DNA from: Fidelibacterota bacterium
Lineage (GTDB): Bacteria > Fidelibacterota > Fidelibacteria > Fidelibacterales > DSDE01
NCBI GenBank assembly: GCA_046735395.1
Contig: JBJKQR010000018.1
Location: 31,088 to 95,087 of the forward strand
Reading direction: 5' to 3'
DNA length: 64,000 bases
Shown here: positions 9,901-59,999 of the stretch, one piece after another
How the letters are laid out: every line of letters starts with the position of its first letter
Numbering within the stretch: position 1 is the first letter of the stretch
Notes under the pieces: generated by a model
The model's database searches: none
Told to the model about the DNA's origin: nothing
What the model saw: only the letters and a program-made list of their open reading frames with translations
Position numbers and translations under genes: made by a program

Positions 9901-10560
9901 AGTACCGACATGGACGGCGGAATGGTTCAGACCCGGGTCTGTGATAACGGGAGCGGCATGAGCGATGAAGTGGCCAGCCGTATTTTTCAGCCGCTTTTTT
10001 CCACCAAGGGTTTTGAGGCAGGCCGAGGTTTCGGTATGAGCGGAGCCTATTCCATCATTCAGGAACACAAGGGACAGATCACCGTAAAACAGAGTAAACC
10101 CGGAAAGGGAACCTGTATCGAGATATTACTTCCCAAATCCGCGGCCGAAAAAAAATCACTGCCGGAAGAAAAGGCCGAGGACACGGAGGCCCGCCGCTTA
10201 CGGATTTTATGGGTTGAAGATGATGCCTCCATTCGAAATCTGGCCACCAAGTATCTGCAGATTCTGAAACAGGACGGCGATTTTGCCGCGACCGGACAGG
10301 AAGCGCTGGAATATCTGGCCGGAAACAGTTATGATCTGGTCATCTCCGATATCGGGATGCCGGAAATGAACGGCTGGCAGCTTGCGGAGATCATCCGGGA
10401 AAAATTCGACGGCAAGCTCCGGATCACGCTGATCAGCGGCTGGGCTGCGCAAATCGATGATGACGAAAAAGACAAGTACAATATATACAGTATTCTTGGA
10501 AAACCCATTCGCCTTGAACAGCTCAGGGAATTGATCCGGCAGGTTACCTCCGAATCGTGA
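6991..10560 (+). CDS. multi-sensor hybrid histidine kinase / response regulator (polytopic N-terminus, PAS, GAF, PAS, HisKA, HATPase, REC)
   Basis: About six N-terminal hydrophobic segments. H-box SAVAHDFNNSLQ. ATP-lid motifs DNGSGM and GRGFGMSG. C-terminal receiver ILWVEDD...ISDIGMPEMNG. Confidence 0.85.
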   Translation: MQFQDKKSTTSHHQPDAHILNQLYLSNIQRGKLFSVFIMVILFPLLFLDYLRFQPLTGEMYQGGQLVFIGHLFSFLLIVLCFLLALRYNSLERTGVTQRYRVAVNTLLYLLLMSTTLVSAGDIMMGTGIANYLSAIMLFSILVYFPRWFSVFFFFSMTLALSVFIHYVGTDRDQMLTNLYVYTFIAFAASRYMYYMKKNDIRLQAELDNSRKLYKAIFDSSPDPIVIHDGERILNANQATARALGVPSTTEIIGRDPFLFVHPEDITKSSSRVMEMIRTHKALPPEEFKFLVQGNEERTVIATPMPIIYQEKPAMMVNYHDITDQKRAENVARISEDRAHLQRTAIARLAVDENLDEGPLESSFQKLTETVASVLSVNRCSIWLFDEDRFLLVCRDLYDNIQQQHKLDSPLTVSDYPRYFNTLYKENLLATTDVANDPRLIDFKKPGDENQPARSIMDCAINMDGRLIGVLCMETSGDDHAWLPSEEAFASNIASLAAHILLNKKRRAAEKALEDSYKVSEIINDILRKVNSTGSMDELFLTVHQSVSRLFNAQNFYIALLNKEKTRIHFPYYRDEMDKWLEEGSESNDIDAGDSRSLTAQVVREGQGMLLDDKAINEKFADSNDQFYGSLPLQWLGVPIRIREDIIGGIVVQSYNNPNQYTPADKTFLETVAESIAPAFERIIAETALRESRKKYQDLFEKSADANLIIENSVFIDFNQAAQDMLQLSAADRHKKIHPADISPAAQPDGENSLEKSERMMQLAIDNGSNRFEWIHVRGNGEAFPTEILLTAIYPEDGKPLIHTVVRDITEKKKTEEAMLKSQRLGAIGEMASAVAHDFNNSLQSIFGNLELATMFQKLPEELRQYLHSMKTAAEDAATRVQLLQRFGGKKQSRSVYGLVDMNQVVQDVILQSRPLWKDQAEKNGIVITIETTPGSIPPVTGNEGELRSVLYNIVKNSTEAMPEGGSIRISTDMDGGMVQTRVCDNGSGMSDEVASRIFQPLFSTKGFEAGRGFGMSGAYSIIQEHKGQITVKQSKPGKGTCIEILLPKSAAEKKSLPEEKAEDTEARRLRILWVEDDASIRNLATKYLQILKQDGDFAATGQEALEYLAGNSYDLVISDIGMPEMNGWQLAEIIREKFDGKLRITLISGWAAQIDDDEKDKYNIYSILGKPIRLEQLRELIRQVTSES

Positions 10561-44528: not shown

Positions 44529-45287
44529 TTATAGGACTTTGACGCGGCGTTTATATTCGTCGAGAGCTTCGGTGAGGCGTTCCCGTGACTTGGGATCACC
44601 CAGGTTGTGGCTGGGATGGATATGCAGTTTTTCGCCGCGGTCCGCCAGAATCTCCGCGACAGTGGTCACGGTCATCCACACGGCTGTGACAAAGGCCATG
44701 GTGGACAGCGGTCCGATCTTGTCCACGTGATTCTTCAGATCCACAGAGGCGTCTCCGATGGGAGTGCAGTTATCCACGACGATATCCGCGAGCTGAAAGA
44801 GATTCTTTCCTCCGCTGTGGGCGGTGCTGCGGGAATAACCTTCCCCGGCAGACCCGAAGACGATCAGTTTCATTCCCAGTTCCTTGGCCCGGATGGCCAC
44901 ATCGATATTGACGGCATTGACGCCGGTATGGGAAAAGATCCACATGCAGTCTCGGCTGTCAAAATCATAGCCGCGCATGATTTCCTTGCCGTAACCTTCC
45001 ATCCGTTCGAGAAAAATAAACTGATGAACCCCCATTTCCCCGGTGATGCGGGTAAAAAAGGTGAGCGGCAGTTCGATCATGGGATGAAAACCGACGAAAC
45101 CGCCGATGCGGGGATACATTTCTTCGATGGGAAGGGTGGCGTGGCCGCAGCCGAAGGTGTGGACCCAGCGGCCGGCGCTGATACTGTCAGCCATGACTTC
45201 CGCCGCTTTGCGGATATTATCCATCTGAGTAGTTTCGATTTTGTTCATGACGTCGTGGGCATTTTTCAGCCATTGTTGTGCAAGCAT
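44529..45287 (-). CDS. single-SIS-domain sugar-phosphate isomerase-fold protein (UPF0309-like)
   Basis: FGCGHATLPIEEMYPRIGG, IFSHTGVNAVNIDVA, AHSGGKNLFQLADIVVDNCTPIGDA. The pattern is as I remember it for the UPF0309 SIS family. Confidence 0.75.
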   Translation of the reverse strand: MLAQQWLKNAHDVMNKIETTQMDNIRKAAEVMADSISAGRWVHTFGCGHATLPIEEMYPRIGGFVGFHPMIELPLTFFTRITGEMGVHQFIFLERMEGYGKEIMRGYDFDSRDCMWIFSHTGVNAVNIDVAIRAKELGMKLIVFGSAGEGYSRSTAHSGGKNLFQLADIVVDNCTPIGDASVDLKNHVDKIGPLSTMAFVTAVWMTVTTVAEILADRGEKLHIHPSHNLGDPKSRERLTEALDEYKRRVKVL

Positions 45288-45299
45288 TTCGTTACCTTT

Positions 45300-46466
45300 T
45301 CATTTTTGTTGTGCCGTCGAGGACGCAACCGTGTTTGCGATGATGATTAAGAGGCCGGACATGATGATCGCAGAGATGCTGATCAGGCCGGGAAAGAGTG
45401 ATAGTTTATCCATGCTGGACAAAAGTCCCACCAGAAAATTCAGGCCGGAATTCCCGATGAGAGCGATGACCAGAGCTACGGAAAAGGCTGTTCCTGATAA
45501 ATCGGAGAACAGGTCGCCCACATAACCGAGAATGACGGGGAAACCGGCGGCGCTGCCGATACCGAGCAGGATCAGTCCGAGGACGGCCGTATTGAGCCCG
45601 GAGGCAAAATTGAGAAGAAGGCTTCCGCAGAAAATAATGAGCAGGGACAGAGCCAGCACGGCAATTGATGAATATTTTTTCAGGAGGGAGCCGAGGACGA
45701 GGCGGGTGAGAGTCAGGGCCAGAATCATGATGGACAGGGCGTAGAGACTGTGTTCGGTGGAAATTCCTGCGCTGTCGCGAAGGTAGGCCGCGGTCCAGGT
45801 GTTGCTGATGCCCTCGATGCCGCTTTCAAAGAAGAGAAAAAATCCCATGAGCAGCAGAACCGGCTGTTTCAGAAGTTTCAGACCCTGGGCAATGGGAAAA
45901 CCCTGATTCTGCTTGGGTTCGGGAAATGTGGCAAACAGAAAGCGGATAAAGGTGAGGAAAACCAGGAAAGCAAAAAACTGAAGCAGGGTCTGATTGGATA
46001 TATAGCGGTTGAAAAGGCCGATGAGCAGGGGCATACCCAGGGCGCCGATTCCGTAAAAGACACCCAGCAGGCTCAGGCCGGCGCCTTTGTCACTTTCACT
46101 GATGTCGGCCACCAGCGCGTTGGTTCCGCCATTGACAGCGCCGCCGCCGAAGCCGATGAGAAAAAAGGACAGCTGCAGCAGCAGGAGGGAGCCGGTCATG
46201 GAAATGAGCAGAAATCCGACAGCAATCCCCAGAGTACTGTAAGCCAGCAGAAAGCGGTAACCGAAACGGTCCACGATGGGGCCGAAGATCATGGATCCGA
46301 CCAGGATTCCGGCCGGCAGCAGCGCCGACAGCGAGGCGAGAGTGAGCTGACTGAGCTGTCGATCTCCGGTGAGATAGGCGCTGGCTGATCCGAGGGATAG
46401 CATGGCCATGCCGAAAATGAGCATGCCTATGTAGGCTGAATACCGTGCCATGTTCTGTGTGGACAT
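45300..46466 (-). CDS. MFS transporter (sugar permease candidate)
   Basis: 388 aa, about 12 hydrophobic segments. Its start codon overlaps the ROK stop (TAATG). Confidence 0.8.
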   Translation of the reverse strand: MSTQNMARYSAYIGMLIFGMAMLSLGSASAYLTGDRQLSQLTLASLSALLPAGILVGSMIFGPIVDRFGYRFLLAYSTLGIAVGFLLISMTGSLLLLQLSFFLIGFGGGAVNGGTNALVADISESDKGAGLSLLGVFYGIGALGMPLLIGLFNRYISNQTLLQFFAFLVFLTFIRFLFATFPEPKQNQGFPIAQGLKLLKQPVLLLMGFFLFFESGIEGISNTWTAAYLRDSAGISTEHSLYALSIMILALTLTRLVLGSLLKKYSSIAVLALSLLIIFCGSLLLNFASGLNTAVLGLILLGIGSAAGFPVILGYVGDLFSDLSGTAFSVALVIALIGNSGLNFLVGLLSSMDKLSLFPGLISISAIIMSGLLIIIANTVASSTAQQK

Positions 46467-47428
46467 TATATTTCTCCTTCACAGCCCTGCATGAGGGCCA
46501 GTTTTCCCGCTCCGAACAGGCCGGCGTCCGCGCCGATGTCCGAGGCTTCGATAAGTGTTTCCCTGAAGGCGATGGGCTGGGCCCAGCGTCCCGCCTCCTG
46601 ACGAATCTGGGGAATGAATTTTCGCGCCGGGCCGAAGACGCCGCCGCCGAAAATGATGATTTCCGGATTGAAGATGCTGATATAATTGGCTGCGGCCATG
46701 CCCCAGTATTCGATGGCCTGATTGATCACCGTGATGGCCAGGGTATCGCTCGCGTCGAAGGCTTCAAATACATCGTAGGAGGTAATATGTTCGGGAAGGG
46801 GCCGGCGCAGCAGTCCGTAATAGTCCGGGGCGCTGTTCAGCAGATCCATGGCAACCCGGGCCAGTCCGTCACCACTTGCGTTATATTCGAAGCAGCCGAA
46901 TTTTTCATAGCCTTCCCGGAAGGGTTTATTCAGGGCCATCCAGCCGGTGGCACCGGCGATGTTACTCTGTCCGTGGAGAATCTTTCCATCCACCAGGATG
47001 CCCGCCCCGATACCGGTGCCGACGGCAAGAAATACGGCATTCCGGCAGTTTTTCGCATGTCCCTGCCACACTTCGCCGAGAATATAGCAGCTCCGGTCGC
47101 TCTCGATGAAGATGGGAATCCCATCGCTGATCGCTTCCAGATCCTTTTTCAGGGGGTAATCTGTCCAGCCCGGAATATTGGGGGCCCAGACTTCACCCCG
47201 GTCCACATGATAGATGCCCGGGACGGACACACCGATGCCTTCAGGCTTGTCTCCCGTGTCATGGGCGGCCTGTATCAGTTTCTTTACCTGCTTCTGAATG
47301 ATTTCACTGACCTGCACACCGGATTTCCCGGCTATCTCCGTCTTCTGACGGTTCAGGATTTCACCGTTTTCCGCCATCAGGGCAGAGGAGGATTTTGTAC
47401 CGCCCAGATCAACCGCTATAATGGTCAT
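46466..47428 (-). CDS. ROK-family sugar kinase
   Basis: IIAVDLGGTK ATP-binding motif, AVGTGIGAGI. Start trimmed to the ATG at 47428 behind AAGGAG. Confidence 0.8.
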   Translation of the reverse strand: MTIIAVDLGGTKSSSALMAENGEILNRQKTEIAGKSGVQVSEIIQKQVKKLIQAAHDTGDKPEGIGVSVPGIYHVDRGEVWAPNIPGWTDYPLKKDLEAISDGIPIFIESDRSCYILGEVWQGHAKNCRNAVFLAVGTGIGAGILVDGKILHGQSNIAGATGWMALNKPFREGYEKFGCFEYNASGDGLARVAMDLLNSAPDYYGLLRRPLPEHITSYDVFEAFDASDTLAITVINQAIEYWGMAAANYISIFNPEIIIFGGGVFGPARKFIPQIRQEAGRWAQPIAFRETLIEASDIGADAGLFGAGKLALMQGCEGEI

Positions 47429-47495
47429 GTCCGCTCCTTGATGTTGTGTCTCCCGCCTCAAAAGCTGCTGTCCGCAGGAAAACGCATTTCTAATA

Positions 47496-47509
47496 TTTTA
47501 TCGTTAACA
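47496..47509. promoter_or_regulatory. candidate LacI-family operator 1 (TTTTATCGTTAACA)
   Basis: Lies in the divergent ROK/LacI intergenic region. It has a central CG and is cre-like (reverse complement TGTTAACGATAAAA). It is a near-repeat of the site at 47544. Confidence 0.45.
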
Positions 47510-47543
47510 GTTTATGACCTTTGATGCTTGAATGCAATATTAT

Positions 47544-47557
47544 TTTTATCGATAACA
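47544..47557. promoter_or_regulatory. candidate LacI-family operator 2 (TTTTATCGATAACA, core TTATCGATAA palindrome)
   Basis: Perfect 10-bp palindrome TTATCGATAA. 13 of 14 positions are identical to site 1, which lies 48 nt away. Confidence 0.45.
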
Positions 47558-47652
47558 TTTTTTATAATAATCTCTGTTTTTTCCAGCGAGTTTTCACTAT
47601 ACTTGCATAAAGTTACTAAGGAATGGCCCGGTGAAATCCGGGCAGGGAAGCG

Positions 47653-48669
47653 ATGAGAAACGGGAAGTCGGGTAAAATAACGCTCAAGGATATTGCCGAA
47701 ATTGCCGGCGTCACATCCATGACGGTATCCCGTGTCGTCAGCGGCAAGGGTTATGTGAAGGAAAGCACGCGCGAACGCATTCTCCGGATTGTGAAAATGC
47801 TGGATTACACGCCGAACCTACTGGCCCGAAGCCTGTCCAGCATGCGGTCCAGAACCATCGGCATCATTATTCCGAAGACCGAGCAGATATTTTTAGACAA
47901 TTATCTGTCCCAGATATTGGCCGGGGTCATGGCGGAACTGAAGGAAAAGGATTACCGGCTCATGATTTATCCGGTGGATGACGAGGATATCGCACAGAAC
48001 GGCTATCTGGGTATTGCCAACAGCAAGCTGGTTGACGGAATCATCATGCTGAAACCCCGCATCGACGATCCGCATCTTCAGAATCTGGCTGAATCGGGAT
48101 TTCCCTATATTCTCATCAATCACCGTCCGGAAAACGGGCAGTATAATTTTATCGATACGGACATGAGGGCCGCAAATATCAACGTAGTGCGGTATCTGTA
48201 TGAAAAAGGCTGCAGACGGATTGCCTTCGTCGCCGGCAGCCAGCTGGAACAGAACGGCATCGATCAGCTGCAGGGCTATCGGGATGGACTTCAACAGACG
48301 GGGCTTCCCTTTGATGAGCGTCTGCTTATTTATTCCGGGGCAGGACGGGCCAACGCGGATATTGATCTCTGGACCGGCGGATCTTCCCGGCCCGATGCCA
48401 TTATCTGTACCAATGATTACACGGCCATTGCTGTTATTGATAAGCTGAAAACTCGAAATATTTCCGTTCCGGATGAGATCGCCGTCATCGGATTCAATGA
48501 TATTGAACTGGCTAAATTTTCCAGCCCGACTCTGACAACGGTAAAACTGCCCATGCTGCGAATCGGCAAAAATGCGGCGGAACAGCTGATTGCCCTGATT
48601 GAAGGCGAAGTGGCCGAACCGATAAAAATTTCTCTCGAACTTCAGCTGATCATCAGAGAATCTGCATGA
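47653..48669 (+). CDS. LacI-family transcriptional regulator
   Basis: N-terminal HTH ITLKDIAEIAGVTSMTVSRVVSG, followed by a periplasmic-binding-protein-like sugar-binding fold. 338 aa. Confidence 0.9.
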   Translation: MRNGKSGKITLKDIAEIAGVTSMTVSRVVSGKGYVKESTRERILRIVKMLDYTPNLLARSLSSMRSRTIGIIIPKTEQIFLDNYLSQILAGVMAELKEKDYRLMIYPVDDEDIAQNGYLGIANSKLVDGIIMLKPRIDDPHLQNLAESGFPYILINHRPENGQYNFIDTDMRAANINVVRYLYEKGCRRIAFVAGSQLEQNGIDQLQGYRDGLQQTGLPFDERLLIYSGAGRANADIDLWTGGSSRPDAIICTNDYTAIAVIDKLKTRNISVPDEIAVIGFNDIELAKFSSPTLTTVKLPMLRIGKNAAEQLIALIEGEVAEPIKISLELQLIIRESA

Positions 48670-48681
48670 AGGGAGTATCAT

Positions 48682-51600
48682 ATGAACAGGGAATGGTCTG
48701 ATTTTTGGACGTCCTTTCAAGTTAATGGGGGATTTATGAGGAGTGGAACAGGAAAACTGACTGTCGTGCTGTTTCTGATCATGACACTGCTGCCGGTCCG
48801 GGCACTTTTTGCAGGAAACGGCAAAATCATGGGACGGGTTACCGACAGGAAGACCGGTGACGGGATTCCCGGAGCCAATGTTATGATCACCGGTGTCTGG
48901 AAAGACGGACGCATGGAGAATCTGGAAATGGTTCAGGGTGCTGCTGCAGATGCCGATGGATACTATTTCATTCTCAATATCGTGCCCGGTACATACACCG
49001 TCAAAACGACGATGATGGGCTACAAGGGCCTGGAGATCAATCAGATTCAGGTCAACATGGACAGAACGGTCAATGTGGATTTTGTTCTGGATGAGACGGT
49101 TCTGAAAATGGAGGCGGTGCAGGTTACGGCGGCAGGTGAAATTATCAAGCCGGACGTATCCGGTACCCAGGAAATCATCACCACAGACCGGCTGGTGGAA
49201 AGTCCCCAGATCCGTCTGGATGAATTTGTCAATAACATCAAGGGTGTGGAAGTGGTTGCGGACAATGACGGAAACGGTATTTCCATCCGCGGTGGTGCCG
49301 TGCAGGAGACAGATGTGCGTCTCGATGGAATCTCCGCCCGGGATCCGCGTTCGGGAAATTCCTATCTTTCCTTCAATTCCACATCCGTATCGGAAATGCA
49401 GGTGCTGACCGGTGGTTTCGAAGCCAAATACGGCGGTTTCCGTTCGGGTATGGTCAATGCCGTGACCAAGGAAGGCTCCCGGGACCGCTATGATTTTTCC
49501 ATGAAATTCGATTATGCCCCGGCAGGTCAGAAGAAATATTTCGGTGAAGATCCCTATTCAAAAAATTCCTGGCTTTACAAGGTGTATGCCGATACGAGCT
49601 TCAAGTGGTATGACCCGTCCGATGAGACCTGGAAAAGCTACGCCATGGATGGTGTTCCGAAAGAGGATTCTCTGCTTGCCCCCGGATTTCCGGAAGAACT
49701 GCGAACTTTCAAAGGCTGGAACGACAAGAATACGGGAACCAAGAATCAGACCATCATCGGATTTCCCAAAAAGCAGAAGCTGACGGCAGAACAGAAGCGG
49801 CAGCTGTGGCTCATTCAGCATCCCGAATACAGTTATTTCAATGATCCGGATATCTACGCGGAGGGAACACTGACCGGCCCCATGCCCTTTACGAAAAATT
49901 CGACTTTTCTGCTCGGCGGGAAGCTGGAAAAAACGCAGTTTGCCTATCCCATCGGGCCGCGGGACTATTACCTCGACTACAACGGCCAGTTCAAAATGAC
50001 GACGAAGATGAGTGACAAGATGAAGGTGTCTGTCAATGCGCTGTACGGAAAGGTGAGCACGAATACCTCCAACAGGCCGTCATCCATGGGCGGTGCGCTT
50101 GTGGATTATTCAAGTCGTTTCAGTTTTCTCAATAACAACCAGTCATCCGTCCGCCAGCAGGCCAGTATTCTTGGCAGCCAGAACGGATTCATTGACATGT
50201 ACAACAAGAGCCAGCTCCAGGAACTCACCCAGCGCTGGTTCATGTCCGGCCTGAAACTGAATCATACTCTGTCGCCGCGGGTGTATTACACACTGAATCT
50301 GGAAGTGACATACAATGACAACATGATAGATCCCATGGTGGCCGACAGCAGTCAGGATGCTGCCTGGACCATGCTCGACAGTTTTCCGGTTCTGAATTAT
50401 CCGCGTATCGGCACACCCAACGGCTCAACCAACATGGGCAAGGATCTGGATGACATGTTTCTCATCTACGGCGGCCTGCAGCAGGTGGATTCCTCCTACT
50501 CCTGGTCCGCGTCCCTGCGCTGGGATCTCACCGCGCAGCTCAACCGCTTCAATCAGTTTGAAACCGGACTGGAGCTGAAATACGATCAGTCCCATGTGTA
50601 TTCGGGAACCTGGCTGCAGTCGGAGAAGATGTGGACGCTGGATACCTGGCAGTATTATGACGCCAAACCGCTGGAACTGGGTGCCTATATGCAGGATAAA
50701 CTGGAATTCGAGGGAATGATCGCGAATATCGGCATGAGGGCGGACTATTTCAATGCCAACCGCAGCGCCTACGACCTCAGGCTGCCCCTCGATGAGGATT
50801 TTTCCAATTTCTACAATCTTAACTATAATTACCTACCGGGACAGTTCGGATCCTTTGAACGCTGGCTGGCCATCCGCGATCAGCTCGGTGATCCGCCGGG
50901 CTGGCCCTCTCTCGGCAGCAAGGGGCAGCTCAAACTGTCGCCGCGTCTCGGTGTGTCCTTTCCGGTCACGACCCGCAGCAAGATGTATTTCAATTTCGGA
51001 CATGCCTATCAGCGACCGAATATGACCTTTCTGTACAACATGGTGATATCCGGAAACCAGGCGGCCATTCCCTCTCCCGATCTGGAAATGGGAAAAACCG
51101 TCCTCTACGAATTCGGATACGAACAGCAGTTTCTCAAATCCTTTCTCTTCTCGACCACCCTGTACTACAAGGATGTGAGCAATGATCCACTGTCCAGAAC
51201 CTTTGTGAATTACTGGCAGGAATTTTCTGTGATCAAATATTTTCCCGATGCCTACTCGGACATCCGTGGTGTGGAAATGCGGCTGGAAAAGAATATGGGC
51301 CGTTTCCTCACTTTCTGGGGAAATTACGAATATATTCTGAAAAGCTATGGCCGCACCGGACTCTCCACCGTGTATGAAAACAAGGTCCAGAATGCCGACG
51401 TTCAGCGAAGCGCAAATATTTCCACCACGGAGCCGGCTCCCGAAGCCCATTTCAATGTCAATCTGCATACTCCCCCGAAATGGGGACTTCTGGGCGGATT
51501 TAAAGCCGATTTTCAGTCCGAATGGCGGGATGGCGGCAAGATTGTCATGAAATATGACCCCATTACCGGAAAACAGTTCAAGGTGGATGTGGTGGACTAT

Positions 51601-51939
51601 TTCAATGTGGACCTGAGAGCATCGAAGAGTTTCCGGGTGGGCCGCCTCAATGCGGAATTTGTCATTACCGTGAACAACCTGCTCAACCAGAAACGTCTGA
51701 ATATCGGCGGCATGAGCACGGCACAATATTCCCGCTACAAGGAATCACTGCGCTTCTGGTACGAGGAGGATGAACAGGTGGTGGACAAGACGACGGGTGA
51801 AGTCGTGGACGTGATCAAAAACCACGGAAACGACAAATGGGGAGAATTTAACAAGGACTATATCGATACAGGCTGGTACACGGCGCCGATCTTTCTCAAT
51901 CCTCGCCGCATCCTTGTCGGATTCCGTTACTCATTCTGA
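48682..51939 (+). CDS. TonB-dependent outer-membrane receptor with carboxypeptidase-regulatory-like N-domain (SusC-sized, no SusD partner)
   Basis: GKIMGRVTD...DADGYYFILNIVPGTYTV (CarboxypepD_reg-like). Plug domain (ISIRGG...VRLDGISARDP...QVLTGGFEAKYGG). Long barrel ending VGFRYSF. An alternative start at 48736 (MRSGTGKLTVVLFLIM..., a cleaner signal peptide) is possible. Confidence 0.85.
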   Translation: MNREWSDFWTSFQVNGGFMRSGTGKLTVVLFLIMTLLPVRALFAGNGKIMGRVTDRKTGDGIPGANVMITGVWKDGRMENLEMVQGAAADADGYYFILNIVPGTYTVKTTMMGYKGLEINQIQVNMDRTVNVDFVLDETVLKMEAVQVTAAGEIIKPDVSGTQEIITTDRLVESPQIRLDEFVNNIKGVEVVADNDGNGISIRGGAVQETDVRLDGISARDPRSGNSYLSFNSTSVSEMQVLTGGFEAKYGGFRSGMVNAVTKEGSRDRYDFSMKFDYAPAGQKKYFGEDPYSKNSWLYKVYADTSFKWYDPSDETWKSYAMDGVPKEDSLLAPGFPEELRTFKGWNDKNTGTKNQTIIGFPKKQKLTAEQKRQLWLIQHPEYSYFNDPDIYAEGTLTGPMPFTKNSTFLLGGKLEKTQFAYPIGPRDYYLDYNGQFKMTTKMSDKMKVSVNALYGKVSTNTSNRPSSMGGALVDYSSRFSFLNNNQSSVRQQASILGSQNGFIDMYNKSQLQELTQRWFMSGLKLNHTLSPRVYYTLNLEVTYNDNMIDPMVADSSQDAAWTMLDSFPVLNYPRIGTPNGSTNMGKDLDDMFLIYGGLQQVDSSYSWSASLRWDLTAQLNRFNQFETGLELKYDQSHVYSGTWLQSEKMWTLDTWQYYDAKPLELGAYMQDKLEFEGMIANIGMRADYFNANRSAYDLRLPLDEDFSNFYNLNYNYLPGQFGSFERWLAIRDQLGDPPGWPSLGSKGQLKLSPRLGVSFPVTTRSKMYFNFGHAYQRPNMTFLYNMVISGNQAAIPSPDLEMGKTVLYEFGYEQQFLKSFLFSTTLYYKDVSNDPLSRTFVNYWQEFSVIKYFPDAYSDIRGVEMRLEKNMGRFLTFWGNYEYILKSYGRTGLSTVYENKVQNADVQRSANISTTEPAPEAHFNVNLHTPPKWGLLGGFKADFQSEWRDGGKIVMKYDPITGKQFKVDVVDYFNVDLRASKSFRVGRLNAEFVITVNNLLNQKRLNIGGMSTAQYSRYKESLRFWYEEDEQVVDKTTGEVVDVIKNHGNDKWGEFNKDYIDTGWYTAPIFLNPRRILVGFRYSF

Positions 51940-51978
51940 GTGAGACTCTGAAAGAATATTAATAAGCGAGAGGAAATC

Positions 51979-54081
51979 ATGATACATAAACATAGAAAAA
52001 TAGTGCTGGTTCTTGCCATTGTGCTGTTGCCCTTCATGGCTTCAGGCCAGAAAAAGCAGTCCGGGCCGCCCATGTTCATGGATGTGAACGCGATCAAAAT
52101 GGATCTGAAAAAGGTCAACGGTGAGGGCCAGTTCACGACTCAGTACAGCTGGATGCTGACAGGTTCTACGTCCACCATTGAGGAAATTTTCAATTATCCC
52201 CAGGATCAGTGGTACAGCAATATGCTCTACCAGATCTTCAATCCGGTCGCTCCGGATGACAATGGCTTTGTCAATCAGCATGGGCAGACGCAGAAACTTC
52301 CCACACCCTACACCAGTCCCGGAAAGAATGTCTATTCCTGGGAACGGCGACGGACCGCGCCCCCGGCTATTTACGTGGATGGGATCCGGCAGAATCAGGA
52401 ATATCCCTGGGAGGTGTATCCCGATCTGAAGTCGGATATGGAAGCCGTCTGGGAAGATATCATTCCCTTCTGGGGTATCCGCGTCAAAGTCGAACTTTAT
52501 GGCTTTTCCAATCCTAATCATGAAAATTATCTGATCTGGAAAGCGACCTATAAGTTTACAGGAGAGACCAAGCCGCCCATTGAAAATCCGGATACGAGTG
52601 ATGTTTTTCCGGATCAGACCCTGCGGCTCTGGTGGCCCCTGTCCTTCAGTTTCGGCCCTTCGAAGGCCGGCGAATATGCCACGCGCGGCGGATTTGCCTA
52701 CGAAGGCGAGGATGATCTGGATTCCTGGTTTGAGGCGACCCTGTCTCTGCCCCATTCAGGGCCCCGGAATTCTCTGAAGATTGCCTACTATTACGATTAT
52801 AAGACGCCGGGTATCAAACCTTATGCGAATGGATCGTCCGATGACAGCGGAGATCCGGATCAGGTGACTGGCCATCTGACCTCGCCTCAGATTCCCGGAT
52901 TCGCATTGCTGCATTCCGCAAAAAATTCCTTCAGTCCTGCGGATGACAACACCGATCAGCCCTATTCCATGCCCCATGCCACCATTGCGGACGATCTGTG
53001 GGGACGGCGTGATCCTGGCCTGCGTGATACCTATATCGGAGACGATGACCGGGGGAAATTTCCTCTGGATCCCATCACGGAGGGATTTATTGCCGATGGA
53101 ACCTCCCAGAAAGGGCCCATGCGTTTCATCACGGTCGGCCCCTACGAATTGCAGAAACAGGGAAACACCTGTGATTCCATCTGTGCTGTGTACGCGCTGG
53201 GTGTGGGATCCATGGACTGGAATGCCGCCGACAGTATCGGCAGGGCCTGGTTCAATGGTGATATCGACGATGCGGAAAAGGATTCTCTGGTCCTTACCGG
53301 AAAGGATTCGCTGCAGAAGGCCTTTGACCGGGCCAACTGGGCCTGGAACCGCGGGCTGGACATTCCCGATCCGCTTCCGTCTCCCTATATTGATGTGAAA
53401 AGCGATGCGGACCGCGTTCTGGTCAACTGGTCCTATCCCAATTCCGATTATTTCAGGGATCCGGATACAAAAGTCGATGACTGGGCCGCCTGGCGCGTAT
53501 ACCGTAAAAAAGGCGCATCCATGGTGGGTGCACCCGATGATAAGTACAGCGGCGAAAAATGGGAACTGATTTTCGAAACCACGGACAGAGCGGTGACGGA
53601 ATACATCGATACGGACGTGATCCGGGGAACGGCCTACTATTATGCGGTGACGGCACTGGATGACGGAAGTCAGAATACAGACGGCCTCCATCCCGGGCAG
53701 AAGCTGGAAAGTTCCCGCTATGCAAACCGCACGGCTCTCCCGGCCATTCCCTTCAAAAAGGGCCTGGACAGCAGCAGTGATGTGGTCGTCGTGCCGAACC
53801 CGGCCACCGTTGTTGCCGGTGCCCTGGGCTTTCCCGGTGAGGAAAATCAGATCATGTTCGCCAATCTTCCCTATAAATGTGATCTGCGGATCTACACGGA
53901 AACGGGTGATTTCATTTACAAAACCAGTCACATCGGCACAGACCAGGAACTCTGGTTTCAGAAAACAGACAATAATCAGTATGTCAGCCCCGGAATCTAT
54001 ATCCTGGCTGTCATCAATGCCGAAACCCTGGACGGGACAAAACTGCCGGACAAATTCACAAAATTTGTCCTGGTCAGATAG
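51979..54081 (+). CDS. secreted 700-aa protein: unknown N-terminal region + FN3-like module + T9SS C-terminal sorting domain
   Basis: Signal peptide without lipobox. FN3-like VLVNWSYPN...WRVYRKK...TEYIDTDVIRGTAYYYAVTALD (about 53410..53670). CTD-like tail VVVVPNPATV...MFANLPYKCDLRIYTETGDFIYK...VSPGIYILAVINAE...KFTKFVLVR (about 53779..54078). Confidence 0.7.
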   Translation: MIHKHRKIVLVLAIVLLPFMASGQKKQSGPPMFMDVNAIKMDLKKVNGEGQFTTQYSWMLTGSTSTIEEIFNYPQDQWYSNMLYQIFNPVAPDDNGFVNQHGQTQKLPTPYTSPGKNVYSWERRRTAPPAIYVDGIRQNQEYPWEVYPDLKSDMEAVWEDIIPFWGIRVKVELYGFSNPNHENYLIWKATYKFTGETKPPIENPDTSDVFPDQTLRLWWPLSFSFGPSKAGEYATRGGFAYEGEDDLDSWFEATLSLPHSGPRNSLKIAYYYDYKTPGIKPYANGSSDDSGDPDQVTGHLTSPQIPGFALLHSAKNSFSPADDNTDQPYSMPHATIADDLWGRRDPGLRDTYIGDDDRGKFPLDPITEGFIADGTSQKGPMRFITVGPYELQKQGNTCDSICAVYALGVGSMDWNAADSIGRAWFNGDIDDAEKDSLVLTGKDSLQKAFDRANWAWNRGLDIPDPLPSPYIDVKSDADRVLVNWSYPNSDYFRDPDTKVDDWAAWRVYRKKGASMVGAPDDKYSGEKWELIFETTDRAVTEYIDTDVIRGTAYYYAVTALDDGSQNTDGLHPGQKLESSRYANRTALPAIPFKKGLDSSSDVVVVPNPATVVAGALGFPGEENQIMFANLPYKCDLRIYTETGDFIYKTSHIGTDQELWFQKTDNNQYVSPGIYILAVINAETLDGTKLPDKFTKFVLVR

Positions 54082-54094
54082 AAAGGACTGAATC

Positions 54095-55123
54095 ATGAGA
54101 TATCATTATAAATTTTTCACTCCGGTCTGCCTTGTCCTGCTGGTTTCCAGCCTGGCTTTTGCCGATATAGAAAAAAAGGCTCAGACCGGATTTCGTTTTC
54201 TGGATAACGCCATTTCCGCCGAAGCCATCGGCCGGGGTGGCCTGGGGCTGGTTTCCAGCCGGGACGCAAACGCCTCATTCTGGAATCCTTCGGGCCTGGC
54301 CTGGATGGAAACAGGTTTCGATTTCGCCGCGAATTATACGAACGGCATCGCCGATATCAATCACAGCTCCTTTACCGTAGCGACCAAACTCGGCCGTTTG
54401 GGCGTGCTGGGCGTGGATCTGCTTTCCATGGATTACGGAGAGCTGACGGGAACTCGCCGGGCTGCCAATGAACTGGGTTTTGAAACGACCGGACCCTTTT
54501 CACCCATGGCCATGGCGACGGGTGTCACCTATGCCCGGAAGGTCAGTGACCGCTTTTCCTGGGGACTGAAGGCAAAATATGCCATCCAGGATCTGGGCTC
54601 GGCCTGGATTGCCCTCGAAGGAAAGGACGTGGACGACACGACGCTGGTGATCGGCAAGCAGAAATACCGGCTCGGTGAACCGGCCCTCGATATCGGAACC
54701 ACCTATGATTTCAACAGTCATGGTATCCGCTTCGGGGCTGTGATGACAAATATTTCCAGGGAAATCAAATATGAACGGGAATCGGCTAAATTTCCCTTTC
54801 CCTTTGCCGTGAGTTTCAGTCTGGGGTTTGCCCCTCTGACTTACCTCGATGTGAATTCCTCCGTCCATTCTCTGTTTGTGGGCTTTGAATCCGTTCATCC
54901 CCGGGACTTCAAGGAAAAGCTGAAAATAGGTGCGGAATACTGTTACGCCGGAACTTTGATACTTCGGAGCGGCTACATGATGAATTATGATGAACGGGGG
55001 CTGACCTTCGGATTCGGTATCCGGCACGAGATGGCCGGGACTCATGTGCGGCTGGATTATGCCTATCAGGATTTTGGAATTTTTTCCGGAGTTCATACCA
55101 TTTCCCTCGGTCTCGCCCACTGA
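54095..55123 (+). CDS. PorV/PorQ-like outer-membrane beta-barrel
   Basis: Signal peptide. N-terminal GFRFLDNAISAEAIGRGGLGLVSSRDANASFWNPSGLA, typical of PorV (LptO)/UPF0164-type barrels. Alternating beta-strand pattern, with the C-terminus ending in aromatic-rich strands. Confidence 0.7.
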   Translation: MRYHYKFFTPVCLVLLVSSLAFADIEKKAQTGFRFLDNAISAEAIGRGGLGLVSSRDANASFWNPSGLAWMETGFDFAANYTNGIADINHSSFTVATKLGRLGVLGVDLLSMDYGELTGTRRAANELGFETTGPFSPMAMATGVTYARKVSDRFSWGLKAKYAIQDLGSAWIALEGKDVDDTTLVIGKQKYRLGEPALDIGTTYDFNSHGIRFGAVMTNISREIKYERESAKFPFPFAVSFSLGFAPLTYLDVNSSVHSLFVGFESVHPRDFKEKLKIGAEYCYAGTLILRSGYMMNYDERGLTFGFGIRHEMAGTHVRLDYAYQDFGIFSGVHTISLGLAH

Positions 55124-55162
55124 CACCCCTTTAAAATCTGAAAATACGTTCAGGAGAGTTTT

Positions 55163-56950
55163 ATGAAAAATAGCATTTTCGCTGCCATGGTGGCGGTTCT
55201 GGTTCTGGCCCTGTCCGGGACGGCGGCTGAGGCCATTCATATCCGGGTTAATCAGGTCGGATATCTGCCTGATGAGAGCAAGCAGGCTCTGGCCTTTTCC
55301 ACTTCCGATTTTTCCTCATCCACCTTTGAAATCATTGATGCGGCCAGCGGGAAACGGGTTTACGGCCCCGATGCCGTGGGCAGAATGACCGGAAGCTGGG
55401 GAGATTTCAATTATAATTACATTCTCGACTTTTCCGCCTTCCACAGGCCGGGACAGTACCGCCTGAAAATGAGCGGAAGCGATAGCAGCTCAGCGGAATT
55501 CAGAATCGGAAAGGATGTTTATCAGACATATTTCGAATCGGTCATTACCTACATGCAGGAACAGCGCTGCGGTTACAATCCCTTCTTCGATGAAGTCTGT
55601 CATGCAAAGGACGGCCGGACCATGTACGGCCCCATGCCTGACTCCACGTACATTGATGTGAGCGGCGGCTGGCACGATGCGGGCGACCATCTGCGCTATC
55701 TCATGACCTCGGGAAATTCCGTCTGTCGCCTCCTTTTTGCCTATTCGGAAAATAAGGGAAAGTACGGCGACCGCGTCAATGCCCTGGGACAGCCCGGAGC
55801 CAACGGGATTCCGGATATTCTGGATGAAGCGAAATGGGGTCTGGACTGGATGCTGAAGATGCATCCTCAGCCGGATCAGCTTTTTCATCAGGTGGCCGAT
55901 GACCGGGACCATATCGGGTTCAAGCTGCCCTATCTCGACACGGCCAATTACGAATGGGGCAAAGGGCAGTACCGCACCGCCTATTATGCCTCGGGAAAAC
56001 CTCAGGGCCTGAAGAAGTGGAAAAACACGTCTACCGGAATTGCAAATCTGGCCGGGCGCTATGCGGCGGCCATGGCCATGGCCTGGGACATCTGGAAAAA
56101 CGATCTGAATGACCCGCTCTATGCCGAAATCTGTAAAAAAGCCGGGATTGAAGTGTATGAAATGGGCCTGAAACAGCCCGGATGTCAGGAAGGCACGCCC
56201 TGCCTGTCTCCCTACCGCTACACGGAAATCACCTGGGCCGATGATATGGAATGGGGCGCGGCCGAACTGTTTCGCATTACCGGCGAGAAAAAATATCTCA
56301 AGGATGCGACCCGTTTTGCCGAAAAGGCCGGAACCGAGTCCTGGATGGGTGCCGATACGGCCCGCCATTATGAATATTATCCCTTCATGAACATGGGACA
56401 TTATGCGCTGTTTCGCGTTGCGGGAGAGAAAGTGCAGCAGCAGCTGGCGGACTATTACCGGCAGAATATCGAAGCCGTGAAAAAACGGGCGGATCAGTCT
56501 CCCTATGACATCGGCATTCCTTTCATCTGGTGCTCGAATAATCTGGCTGCGGCTTTCGTCACCGAATGCCTTCTCTATGAAAAGATGACCGGAGACACGC
56601 AGTACCACCAGCTCATGGAGGCACACCGTGACTGGCTGCTGGGACGGAATCCCTGGGGCTGCACGCAGATCGTGGGCATTCCCGCATACGGTGAATATCC
56701 CCATTATCCCCACTCGCCCACAACCCTGTTTACCGATTCTCTCATCGTGGGTGCGCTCAATGACGGGCCTGTCTACGCTACCATTTATCACAGCCTGAAG
56801 GGTGTCAAGCTGCTTCGGCCCGATAAATACGCCGCTTTTCAGTCCGGGCCTGCCGTCTTTCATGATGATATCTGGGATTATTCAACGAATGAACCGACCC
56901 TGGACGGTAGCGCCGAGACCATTTATTTTCTGAGCGTCTTCGCCGAATAA
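55163..56950 (+). CDS. glycoside hydrolase family 9 with N-terminal Ig-like (CelD_N-type) domain, signal peptide, no T9SS tail
   Basis: [14 protein letters not shown] (Ig-like module). [12 protein letters not shown] (catalytic Asp pair). [19 protein letters not shown] (GH9 signature 2 with the catalytic Glu). Confidence 0.85.
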
Positions 56951-57167
56951 TTTTATACTCATCCGGCGGATGTATATGCATTCGCCCGGTATGATCATTT
57001 GTCATCGTAACGGGATTGTTTTTAGAGAACAGTCCCGTTTTTGTAATAATTCAGAATCCTTCGTCACGGGGACGGGCCGAGTCCGGAAAGGAGAGCTGCA
57101 AAATCCAATTACTCCTTTCCCGTTGCGGCTGAATTTTGTACCTTCGTGGTTAAATGATCGAGGAAAA

Positions 57168-59999
57168 ATGCTTCACGATAAAATAATTATAAAGGGTGCG
57201 CGGGAGCACAATCTCAAGAATGTTGATCTGGAAATTCCCCGGGACAAACTGGTGGTCATCACCGGATTGAGCGGTTCGGGAAAGAGTTCCCTGGCTTTTG
57301 ACACACTGTATGCGGAAGGGCAGAGGCGCTATGTGGAGAGCCTGTCCAGCTATGCCCGTCAGTTTCTCGGTCTCATGGAAAAACCGGATGTGGACAATAT
57401 TGAAGGGCTGTCGCCGGCCATTTCCATCGAGCAGAAGAGTACGCACCGGAATCCGCGTTCCACCGTCGGGACTGTAACGGAAATTCACGATTATCTGCGC
57501 CTGCTCTATGCGCGCATCGGCGTGCCGCACTGCTATATCTGCGGAACCCGCGTGTCGAAGATGACCGTTCAGCAGATCGTCGATACGGTTCTCACCTTTC
57601 CGGTGGGTGCAAAACTTCAGATCATGGCGCCTCTGGTCACCGAGCGGAAGGGGGAATTCCGGGAACTCTTCGCGGAAATGCGCAAGGAAGGCTTTCTCCG
57701 TCTGCGGGTGGACGGGAAAATTCTGGCGCTGACTACTCAGATCGTCCTCGATAAAAACAAAAAACACAGTATCGATCTCATTGTCGACAGGCTGGTCGTC
57801 AATGACAATATAAAATCACGTCTCACCGAAAGCGTGGAGCTAGCCCTGAAAATGGGGAACGGCAATATACTGGTGGATGAGCAGGGCGTGAAGGAACACA
57901 AATATTCGGAAAATTATGCCTGTCCCAATCATGAGGACATCAATTTTGAGGAATTGTCTCCCCGGCTTTTTTCCTTCAATAATCCCCTGGGCGCCTGCCC
58001 GGCCTGCGGAGGCCTGGGTACGCAGCGGGAGATTTCTCCGGATCTTGTAGTGCCCGACAAACGGAAAAGCCTGCTGCAGGGCGCTATCCTTCCCCTGGGT
58101 GAACAGCCCCGCGGCTCCTATTACAGTTCCTTTCTGAAGAGCCTGTCCAAGGAATATAATTTCAAATTCACCACTCCCTGGAGCAAACTGGATCCGAAGG
58201 TTCAGCACGTTCTGCTCTACGGGACCGGCGAAGGCGAGGATCTGCTGATTCAGTACGAGAGCAGCAAATGGTCCGGAGCTTACCGGGGGCATTACGAAGG
58301 TGTGATCAATAATCTGACCCGCCGCTATCACCAGACCCGCTCCGGAAGTATCCGGGACTGGATCGAACGCTTCATGAGCATTCAGGACTGCCGGGTCTGC
58401 GGCGGCAGCCGTCTGAAACGGTCCGCAAATGCGGTCCTGATTCAGGGCAGGAGCATTACCGATGTGTCCTCCATGAGTATTGAAACCTCTCACGAATTTT
58501 TCCGGACCCTGACCCTGAATGAAACGGATTCACAGATTGCCCGGCAGATTCTGCAGGAAATTCAGGCGCGCCTCGGTTTTTTAAACGATGTGGGCCTGGG
58601 CTATCTCACCCTCAACCGGCACGCCGGGTCGCTGTCCGGCGGCGAAGCTCAGCGGATCCGCCTGGCCACTCAGATCGGTTCACGGCTGATGGGTGTACTC
58701 TATATTCTGGACGAACCGAGTATCGGACTGCATCAGCGTGATAATGACCGGCTGCTCGCCACGCTCAAGCATCTGCGGGACCTGGGAAATTCCGTGATCG
58801 TCATCGAACATGATCAGGAAACAATGGAGGCCGCGGACTGGATTGTGGACGTGGGCCCCGGTGCCGGAATTCACGGCGGCCATGTGGTCTGCTCCGGGCC
58901 TCTCGATGTAGTAAAAAACTGCACGCAGTCCGAAACGGGCCTGTACCTGAGCAAACAGAAGTCCATTCCGGTGCCGAAGAGACGGAATAAGGGCAACGGA
59001 AAAAAACTTGTTCTCTCCGGCGCGACCGGGAATAATTTAAAGAAGGTGACCCTGAACCTGCCTCTGGGCAAACTGGTCTGTGTCACCGGTGTGAGCGGAT
59101 CGGGAAAAAGTTCTCTCGTGAACGAGACCCTGGTGCCGCTGCTGAACCGGAAACTCATGCATGCCACGAAAGATAATCCCCTGCCCTCTGAAAATCTGAC
59201 AGGTGTTGAATTTCTCGACAAAATTATTTCCATCGATCAGTCACCCATCGGAAGGACGCCGCGCAGCAATCCGGCAACCTATACCGGTGTCTTTACCCAT
59301 ATTCGCGAACTCTTTTCCAATGTGCCCGAATCAAAGATCCGCGGATATCAGCCGGGGCGTTTTTCCTTCAATGTGAAGGGCGGGCGCTGTGAGGCCTGCG
59401 AAGGTGACGGAATCCGGAAAATTGAAATGCATTTTCTGCCGGATGTCTACGTGCGCTGCGAGGAATGCAAGGGAATGCGCTATAACCGCGAAACCCTCGA
59501 GATCCGCTACCGTGGCCGTACCATCTCCGATGTGCTGGAAATGACCGTGGAGGAGGCGCTGGACTTCTTCAGCCGGCATCCGGCGGTGAAACGAAAGCTG
59601 CAGACGCTCGTGGATGTGGGACTGGGATATATCAAGCTCGGCCAGCAGGCCACCACACTGTCCGGCGGCGAGGCTCAGCGTATCAAGCTGGCTACCGAAT
59701 TGTCCCGCATCGGGACGGGCCGGACTCTCTACGTGCTGGATGAGCCGACTACCGGTCTTCACTTCGCGGATGTGGCTCTGCTCATCACGGTTCTGACGCG
59801 TCTTGTTGAAAAGGGCAACACCGTGCTGGTCATCGAACATAATCTGGATGTGATCAAGACGGCGGATCATATCATCGATATCGGTTATGAGGGCGGAGAC
59901 AAGGGCGGTGAGATCATTGCTGAAGGCAGCCCCGAGCAGATCGCTGTCGCGTCCCGATCCTATACAGGACAATATCTGAAGACGGTTCTGGCTGAATAA
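57168..59999 (+). CDS. uvrA: excinuclease ABC subunit A
   Basis: Start set to [21 protein letters not shown] (ATG at 57168, RBS GAGGAA). [23 protein letters not shown]. Zn modules CPNH...CPACGG and CEACEGDG...CEEC. Two ABC cassettes. Confidence 0.95.

Follow-up and report, generated by a model that had tools for sequence, protein, structure and literature searches.

How might a cell capture and import glycan oligomers through a TonB-dependent transporter (TBDT) when its locus encodes no SusD-type partner? The question is raised by a stretch of 64,000 nucleotides (hereafter the window) from a Fidelibacterota bacterium (assembly GCA_046735395.1, contig JBJKQR010000018.1, positions 31,088 to 95,087), in which five forward-strand genes encode a LacI-family repressor, a TBDT, a secreted 700-residue protein (X700; its family is called X below), an outer-membrane barrel related to PorV and PorQ, and a glycoside hydrolase family 9 (GH9) enzyme. 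A preliminary description of this DNA had proposed that X700, which a type IX secretion system (T9SS) displays and its own barrel holds at the surface, is the substrate-binding partner of the receptor. Its gene order was exact, the coordinates of the open reading frames (ORFs) giving spacers of 12, 39, 13 and 39 nt, and profile matches bore out its LacI repressor, PorV/PorQ-like barrel and GH9 glycosidase with a signal peptide. It was also right that SusD is missing: no gene between 42.9 and 60 kb of the window matched SusD/RagB in Pfam or NCBIfam. The receptor, X and the PorV-like barrel are a recurrent SusD-less unit found in at least six phylum-level lineages of the Fibrobacteres–Chlorobi–Bacteroidetes (FCB) group.

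The synteny of this triad is strict. Loci from a scan with one genome per species (117 returned, 80 kept) were searched by tblastn with the window proteins. A TBDT ortholog lay upstream of X in all 68 loci with enough upstream sequence and a PorV-like ortholog lay downstream in all 74 loci with enough downstream sequence. The metagenome-assembled genomes concerned carry the labels Neomarinimicrobiota, KSB1, Delongbacteria, Calditrichia, Ignavibacteria (including Melioribacter roseus) and Kryptoniota. Chance adjacency of the three genes was rejected, as no orthologous locus that could accommodate the triad lacked it. The close homologs of X700 (at least 50% identity over the full length) number 308, and every one of them is annotated 'hypothetical'. 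They come from sources labelled Marinimicrobia/Fidelibacterota, KSB1, Delongbacteria and Ignavibacteriales, which makes a Marinimicrobia genome the most likely origin of the window.

Beyond these close homologs, a phmmer search of 1.84 billion representative proteins placed X in a superfamily of 667 clusters at E<=1e-3 (312 at E<=1e-10). Its members are mostly 650-750 aa long, and many share just residues ~430-700 of X700, which comprise the helices, the FN3-like domain, the linker and a domain resembling the C-terminal domain (CTD) of T9SS cargo. All nine distant X paralogs whose genomic context was looked up lie directly behind a CarboxypepD_reg/Plug TBDT homologous to that of the window (jackhmmer E 1e-136 to 0), and eight of the nine have a PorV-family barrel in the locus, the exception (L083) being cut near a contig edge. 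The barrel gene is usually immediately downstream of X in these loci, sometimes upstream, and in L088 between TBDT and X. The sugar genes around the paralogs differ: one context holds a pectin-type set of GH28, GH88, a major facilitator superfamily (MFS) transporter and GntR (L090), another RbsD_FucU and Laminin_G_3 (L081), and a third DUF4874/DUF4832 proteins with Por_Secre_tail (L085). Because the same triad recurs amid differing sugar genes, it behaves as a portable uptake module, like SusC/SusD in Bacteroidota.

Divergence within the triad is also correlated. Distance-matrix correlations were 0.90 for TBDT and X, 0.84 for TBDT and the PorV-like barrel and 0.77 for X and the barrel, against 0.23-0.60 between triad members and the flanking SIS or ROK genes, and partial correlations controlling for SIS/ROK were 0.72-0.89; this co-variation fits a co-evolving or co-inherited module and is not proof of physical contact. 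Two details of gene arrangement were noted in passing. At L088:3983-10733, a TBDT split into two ORFs is followed by a PorV/UPF0164-like barrel and then by an X protein of 910 aa. Just upstream of some TBDT-X pairs (L037:873-4770, L086:2524-4836 and L089:234-4149) stands a second recurrent trio, in the order PorV-like barrel, IPT/TIG-domain protein and NHL/FlgD_ig protein with Por_Secre_tail, and this trio may form a further module of cargo and barrel in these loci.

The receptor of the triad is a TBDT of SusC-type layout outside the SusC family. Its N-terminus matches PF13620 (CarboxypepD_reg, 7e-15), PF13715 (3.4e-12) and Plug (2.4e-8) ahead of a barrel that brings it to the ~1000-aa class, and its C-terminus (LVGFRYSF) is a canonical aromatic outer-membrane beta-signal, as in TonB-dependent transporters; the real start is probably Met19. 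The layout and size given for a 'SusC-like' receptor in the preliminary description thus stand, but the family does not: the NCBIfam scan found no match to the SusC/RagA model (TIGR04056) even at E<=10, and membership of the SusC family was rejected on that ground. The barrel region had no Pfam match (E<=10) and no PDB sequence match; TBDTs of the paralog loci, homologous to it, show OMP_b-brl_3 / TonB_dep_Rec_b-barrel matches. Since the receptor lies outside SusC/RagA, the earlier premise that SusD is an obligatory partner does not apply to it.

The barrel belongs to a family known from the T9SS. It scores 174.2 bits with the PorV/PorQ family model NF033709 (cutoff 90), aligning residues 30-340 to positions 1-324 of 326, and 32 bits with Pfam PorV (cutoff 27), and its best PDB sequence match is PorV of Flavobacterium johnsoniae (6h3i_F, 3e-9). 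Scores with the equivalog models all fall under their cutoffs (PorV NF033710, 86 against 250 bits; PorQ NF033711, 74 against 220; PorV2, 53 against 325), and there was no Pfam or NCBIfam match to PorP/SprF. Judged by these scores, the protein is a generic PorV/PorQ-family member and not an equivalog of PorV, PorQ or PorP/SprF.

X700 has a Sec signal peptide (residues 1-23, cleaved between FMASG and QKKQ) that lacks a lipobox Cys. The N-terminal Gln left by cleavage is the consensus among orthologs and recalls the Bacteroidetes 'Q-rule', which is reported as failing for the FCB group as a whole. X700 has no Pfam match, and its N-domain has no Pfam or NCBIfam match even at E<=10. AlphaFold2 (AF2) models of the full-length protein (predicted local distance difference test score, pLDDT, 74) and of the separate N-domain (pLDDT 87.8; predicted template modelling score, pTM, 0.91) are all-beta, unlike SusD, and give the domain limits listed in Table 1. 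In a Foldseek search of the PDB, the N-domain was no more than weakly similar (template modelling score over the query, TMq, 0.25-0.34) to its matches, which were beta-supersandwich N-domains of enzymes from families GH94, GH65, GH36 and GH161; neither a catalytic domain nor anything like SusD was matched. Of the N-domain's alignment columns, 21% are invariant. We counted the carbohydrate-associated character of these N-domains (GH94/GH65/GH36) toward a capture role. When the whole protein was searched, most matches were to eukaryotic FN3 tandems and told nothing about the N-domain. The FN3-like module noticed at the outset is upheld by the model, by these FN3 tandem matches and by a match of the X700 family profile to the Fn3-like structure 3mpc (E=3.3e-4). 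Behind it, a conserved linker (LESSRYANR...) has several invariant residues and a pLDDT of ~42, and may fold only upon partner binding.

Whether the C-terminal domain of X is a T9SS CTD bears on how X would reach the surface. In X700 it is modelled as a seven-stranded beta-sandwich at the extreme C-terminus, the fold of type-A CTDs (AF2 strands 624-627, 633-640, 645-652, 657-660, 672-682 and 692-698; pLDDT ~65-84). The best match of this region is the C-terminal domain of PorZ (NCBIfam E=1.1e-3; PorZ structure 5m11, E=0.084 with the family profile). Type-B models gave 14.5 bits for CHU_C (PF13585, E=0.04, cutoff 27) and no match for NCBIfam TIGR04131, and hhalign of the X C-terminus with the CTDs of neighbouring GH18 chitinases gave a probability of 22.6% (P=9e-4). 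A lineage profile that left out X members and drew on nothing but 61 genuine type-A CTDs of the fetched loci recovered 20 of 87 X-family C-termini at E<=1e-3 and 56 of 87 at E<=1e-2 (best 8e-7), and none of the shuffled controls fell below E=0.7. An iterative profile that included X drifted, all members following once one had been admitted, and its result was not used. As judged from these profile matches, the C-terminal domain of X is CTD-derived at the family level and has diverged in the chitin-type orthologous group to which the window belongs.

Conservation suggests what such a domain might do. Invariant columns make up 23.5% of the CTD-like domain of X, which is conserved as strongly as the remainder of the protein, against 0% in the cleavable CTD of the neighbouring GH18 orthologs; this contrast fits a retained, partner-binding domain and not a disposable signal. 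Por_Secre_tail matches above threshold in neighbouring GH18, S8 peptidase and NHL proteins of related loci indicate that the relatives' lineages use the T9SS. Precedents exist for such retention: cognate PorV-like barrels hold uncleaved CTDs in PorZ/PorQ, PorU/PorV and type-B CTD/PorP-SprF pairs (PMC10202324), and T9SS carrier proteins pull substrate from the translocon, after which type-B cargo is anchored at the surface (PMC10994853). These precedents favour a barrel-anchored X.

With about even confidence, we propose that X is a T9SS-delivered partner, tethered to its own barrel, that feeds the TBDT. X would be exported by Sec as a non-lipoprotein, and the T9SS would then take it across the outer membrane, the co-encoded barrel serving as cognate carrier. 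The CTD-like domain would escape cleavage and remain bound to that barrel, anchoring X in the membrane beside the TBDT. There the supersandwich domain would capture an oligosaccharide and pass it to the TBDT for TonB-powered import, which is the job that SusD does for SusC. A periplasmic GH9 would trim the imported oligomers, the MFS transporter would take them up, the ROK kinase would phosphorylate them and the NagS-like SIS enzyme would complete the pathway, all under LacI control. What the data establish is the gene content, the families, the strict synteny, the superfamily, the co-variation and, for the family as a whole, the CTD relationship; the location, T9SS delivery and tethering of X, its ligand and receptor contacts and the substrate are inferred.

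Several observations weigh against this scheme, touching the delivery of X, its conservation and the substrate of the window copy. On delivery, the C-terminus of X700 scores 14.9 bits with TIGR04183 (cutoff 23, E=0.02), has no match to Por_Secre_tail PF18962 and reaches E=3.1 with the 61-CTD profile, so that the T9SS sorting domain named in the preliminary description falls below the cutoff in this protein. Profile scans found no T9SS core gene in the 64-kb window, and mirror-tree correlations can stem from co-transfer instead of contact. A subthreshold CTD would suit an alternative in which X and the barrel are not T9SS cargo and anchor at all: the CTD would be a relic and X periplasmic or an accessory of TBDT assembly or gating, or else the FadL-homologous barrel would be a diffusion channel for small sugars. 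PorV-family barrels are indeed FadL homologs, this one has a weak Toluene_X match, and in paralog loci the barrel gene can also precede the TBDT or sit between it and X. Furthermore, the FadL-like BamG binds a surface protein without a PorV-like shuttle role (PMC12578637). We nevertheless consider this alternative improbable: the C-terminal domain of X is homologous at the family level to genuine type-A CTDs, its best match is the retained CTD of PorZ, whose partner is PorQ, and the barrel satisfies the PorV/PorQ family model over its full length. That the barrel accompanies X whatever the sugar context argues, in addition, against a substrate-specific channel.

On conservation, X proteins share 50-77% identity between phyla and have many invariant Asp, Arg and His residues; such constancy is more enzyme-like than glycan-binder-like. 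X could thus be an enzyme from a new family, anchored at the surface (perhaps a chitin/chitosan hydrolase, lyase or deacetylase), that sits on the barrel and has no binding or lid function, the TBDT importing its products. The window locus encodes no other extracellular depolymerase, relatives add a GH18 at exactly this position, and the supersandwich fold is common to glycoside phosphorylase and hydrolase N-domains and to polysaccharide lyase family 17 (PL17). We regard this reading as unlikely, however. X has no catalytic-domain match in Pfam, NCBIfam, PDB sequences or Foldseek, where the structural likeness (TMq <=0.34) is to non-catalytic N-domains, and homologous N-domains occur in unrelated sugar contexts, always beside a TBDT, which better fits a transport accessory. 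The same sharing across paralogs (e.g. P0158, residues 146-678) also counts against part of our own proposal, since it weakens the idea that the N-domain alone sets substrate specificity.

The substrate of this orthologous group is probably chitin- or chitosan-derived amino-sugar oligosaccharides, a view that depends on genes in the locus or in its relatives. A GH18 chitinase with a genuine T9SS CTD occurs in 21 related loci, mostly between TBDT and X and otherwise next to the triad. The former placement is seen at L004:7701-9071, L035:4115-5461, L049:8641-9984 and about 15 more, under Ignavibacteria, Kryptoniota and some Marinimicrobia labels. M. roseus (L066:8094-10592) has its GH9 ortholog as an 832-aa fusion with a CE4 polysaccharide deacetylase domain, which suggests action on deacetylated chitooligosaccharides rather than cellulose; the gene is probably Mros2837, a 96-kDa endoglucanase according to the genome paper (PMC3534657). 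In 11-15 loci, the downstream genes include PIG-L deacetylase, GNAT and HGSNAT-like ones. The SIS enzyme, better conserved than any other protein of the locus (mean identity 75% across 29 loci), scores 215 bits with NF002805 (cutoff 135) and is homologous to Streptomyces NagS SCO4393 (PDB 9eol, 1.6e-21), a recently described N-acetylglucosamine (GlcNAc)-6-phosphate dehydratase (PMC12680351). Taken together, the GH18, the GH9-CE4 fusion, PIG-L and the NagS-like SIS enzyme point to chitin or chitosan.

Alternatively, the same architecture could serve a beta-1,4-glucan (cellodextrin, mixed-linkage glucan or xyloglucan), and beta-glucan was the substrate named first in the preliminary description. 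The GH9 enzyme (244.5 bits with PF00759, full profile covered) has a CelD_N Ig domain and is most like endoglucanases and the xyloglucanase BoGH9A; it matches the Ig-GH9 endoglucanase 3x17 at 9e-34 against 2.7e-9 for the exo-glucosaminidase 5dgq. The ROK kinase has glucokinase- and GlcNAc-kinase-like NCBIfam matches, all under equivalog cutoffs, and is closest to the glucokinase subfamily; the M. roseus GH9 ortholog is, as noted, annotated as an endoglucanase; and the window locus has neither GH18 nor a deacetylase. We think a beta-glucan substrate doubtful, given the GH18-CTD proteins in or beside the triad of relatives, the CE4 fusion, the PIG-L, GNAT and HGSNAT-like neighbours and the homology of the SIS enzyme to NagS, and chitin-derived amino sugars are the likelier choice. 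Furthermore, a profile scan found no beta-glucosidase or cellobiose phosphorylase in the locus, and GH9 'chitobiases' acting on deacetylated chitobiose, (GlcN)2 (GlcN, glucosamine), have been proposed in chitinolytic Fibrobacteres (PMC4814513). As the GH9 is nearer to endoglucanases while its context is one of amino sugars, its sequence alone does not settle the substrate. It has a signal peptide and no CTD, and is presumably periplasmic. With neither GH18 nor a deacetylase of its own, the window copy may live off oligomers on which other organisms have already worked.

The cassette of five genes is real and, in the form in which it was first described, too small. A divergent ROK-MFS-SIS operon joins it across an AT-rich intergenic region (Table 1), and we hold at roughly even weight that positions 44529-57039 constitute an eight-gene, LacI-controlled sugar-utilisation locus. 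SIS-MFS-ROK is syntenic in ~35 related loci and GH9 in ~22, whereas none but the closest relatives (L001-L007) carry LacI. A second ROK paralog replaces LacI upstream of the TBDT in most relatives (L011, L014, L024-L026, L038, L041, L045, L057, L069, L072 and L074), where the regulator appears to have been swapped. The divergent region holds a single sigma-70-like match at 47514-47543, in a scan that was noisy (30 matches against 14 expected), and a search there (47462-47652) found no convincing LacI operator palindrome. At the other end, a terminator-like hairpin lies within the 218-nt gap between GH9 and uvrA. The raw uvrA ORF (56970-59999) begins too early, the canonical UvrA N-terminus being at 57169, and uvrA was ruled out as an operon member by the hairpin (57009-57039) together with this true start.

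Table 1. Coordinates, in the window, of the locus genes, of the domains of X700 and of the non-coding elements that bound the transcription units.
Feature	Position	Strand	Description
SIS_2 sugar-phosphate isomerase/dehydratase-like protein	44529-45287	-	NF002805 family; PF13580 3.3e-41; last gene of divergent operon
MFS inner-membrane transporter	45300-46466	-	PF07690 1.2e-32
ROK-family sugar kinase	46466-47461	-	PF00480 8.9e-50
Divergent intergenic region	47462-47652		191 nt, AT-rich; presumed promoters and operator
LacI-family repressor	47653-48669	+	PF00356 6.4e-18; Peripla_BP_3 1.3e-36
TonB-dependent transporter (TBDT)	48682-51939	+	1085 aa; CarboxypepD_reg, Plug, large divergent barrel; non-SusC/RagA
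X700	51979-54081	+	secreted 700-aa protein; without Pfam family
X700 N-domain	52060-53373	+	residues 28-465; beta-supersandwich with three helices at its end (AF2)
X700 FN3-like domain	53374-53673	+	residues 466-565
X700 linker	53674-53784	+	residues 566-602; conserved, low-confidence model
X700 CTD-like domain	53785-54078	+	residues 603-700; C-terminal 7-strand beta-sandwich
PorV/PorQ-family outer-membrane barrel	54095-55123	+	342 aa; 14-strand type; NF033709
Ig-like + GH9 glycosidase with signal peptide	55163-56950	+	PF00759 3.7e-72; CelD_N 1e-18
Terminator-like hairpin	57009-57039	+	14-bp stem then T-run; ends operon

Outside the locus, the 64-kb window encodes housekeeping functions (ilv/leu, topA, suf, hisS-like, histidine kinases). 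Two large hybrid histidine kinases with PAS/GAF/HisKA/HATPase/receiver domains, at 6991-10560 and 27104-29467, are unrelated to the cassette; one of them has a Tll0287-like sensor domain. Long antisense ORFs of 275-457 aa over ROK (46445-47524, +), LacI (47893-48720, -), X700 (52756-54096, -) and GH9 (55490-56863, -) are unsupported, and base composition most likely accounts for them.

Members of Marinimicrobia, Ignavibacteria, KSB1 and related groups abound in the ocean, in sediments and in the subsurface and are mostly uncultured, and their polysaccharide uptake has been pictured on the model of Bacteroides SusCD, a pair largely missing from them. The combination of TBDT, X and PorV-like barrel may tentatively be viewed, somewhat short of even confidence, as an unrecognised general glycan-capture machine of non-Bacteroidia FCB phyla, in which the T9SS would install a lid or binder and a private carrier would double as its permanent anchor. 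If so, the X family (~667 clusters, 'hypothetical' and outside Pfam) would mark 'PUL-like' loci (PUL, polysaccharide utilisation locus) in these phyla. The chitin/chitosan-oligosaccharide route suggested by GH18, deacetylase, GH9, kinase and NagS-like enzyme would bear on marine chitin turnover, and Melioribacter roseus, as a cultured host, makes the module testable. Neither the triad nor the X family was found described in open-access papers or bioRxiv, an absence that is not proof of novelty.

Among known systems, several share parts of this design. In BtuB-BtuG of Bacteroides and TbpA-TbpB or HpuAB of Neisseria, a TBDT is aided by a surface protein that captures the ligand, and the triad would be a second evolutionary solution for placing such a protein atop a TBDT. 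These known partners are lipoproteins flipped to the surface by lipoprotein-export or Slam systems, whereas X is not a lipoprotein and comes with a CTD-like domain and a barrel of its own. Carbohydrate utilisation loci containing TBDTs (CUT loci) of Proteobacteria such as Xanthomonas and Caulobacter combine a TBDT, a LacI-type regulator, an MFS transporter and glycosidases without SusD. The window locus is of this type, with LacI, TBDT, MFS and GH9 all within 12.5 kb, but CUT loci are not known to encode a partner or an anchor barrel of their own. We know of no BtuBG, TbpAB or CUT system with a CTD-bearing partner plus a private barrel. The ChiUL locus of Flavobacterium johnsoniae joins TBDT-based uptake to a T9SS-secreted GH18 chitinase, and relatives of the window locus similarly put a Por_Secre_tail GH18 between TBDT and X. 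Whereas ChiUL has two SusC/SusD pairs, GH20 and NagA/B-type catabolism, the loci described here lack SusD and combine GH9, CE4 or PIG-L, ROK and a NagS-like enzyme, a set suggestive of a route through deacetylation.

The T9SS pairs SprB/SprF, PorZ-PorQ and PorU-PorV resemble X and its barrel in coupling a C-terminal CTD-type sandwich to a dedicated PorV-like barrel encoded by an adjacent gene (PMC10202324, PMC10994853). In contrast to them, the triad uses a generic barrel of the PorV/PorQ family, and its CTD stands closer to type A/PorZ than to type B. Its pair is also tied to a TBDT and to catabolic genes, not to a gliding or attachment complex, and occurs in non-Bacteroidia FCB phyla. If our proposal is true, the triad would extend T9SS carrier-anchor biology past gliding adhesins and the attachment complex, and would be the first case of that logic wired directly to nutrient import. 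In BamG-BamH of the Bacteroidota beta-barrel assembly machinery (BAM), a 14-strand FadL/PorV-like barrel likewise binds a surface protein, through extracellular loops (PMC12578637), though its role is in outer-membrane protein assembly and the partner has another fold; the homology considered is that of the FadL superfamily.

The closest parallel is with SusC/SusD (RagA/RagB). Both systems place the gene of a secreted, presumably surface-exposed partner directly downstream of a large CarboxypepD_reg and Plug TBDT, both set the pair within a locus of regulator, carbohydrate-active enzyme and inner-membrane transporter genes, and both have been duplicated and diversified for different glycans. 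Unlike SusC, the TBDT here fails the SusC/RagA model. SusD is an alpha-helical tetratricopeptide-repeat lipoprotein, whereas X is an all-beta supersandwich-FN3-CTD protein with no lipobox Cys, and the triad has a third co-encoded component in its PorV-family barrel. M. roseus has a classical SusCDE system (PMC3534657) as well as the triad, so the two coexist. If the proposed mechanism is true, the triad would do the work of SusCD with a different set of parts.

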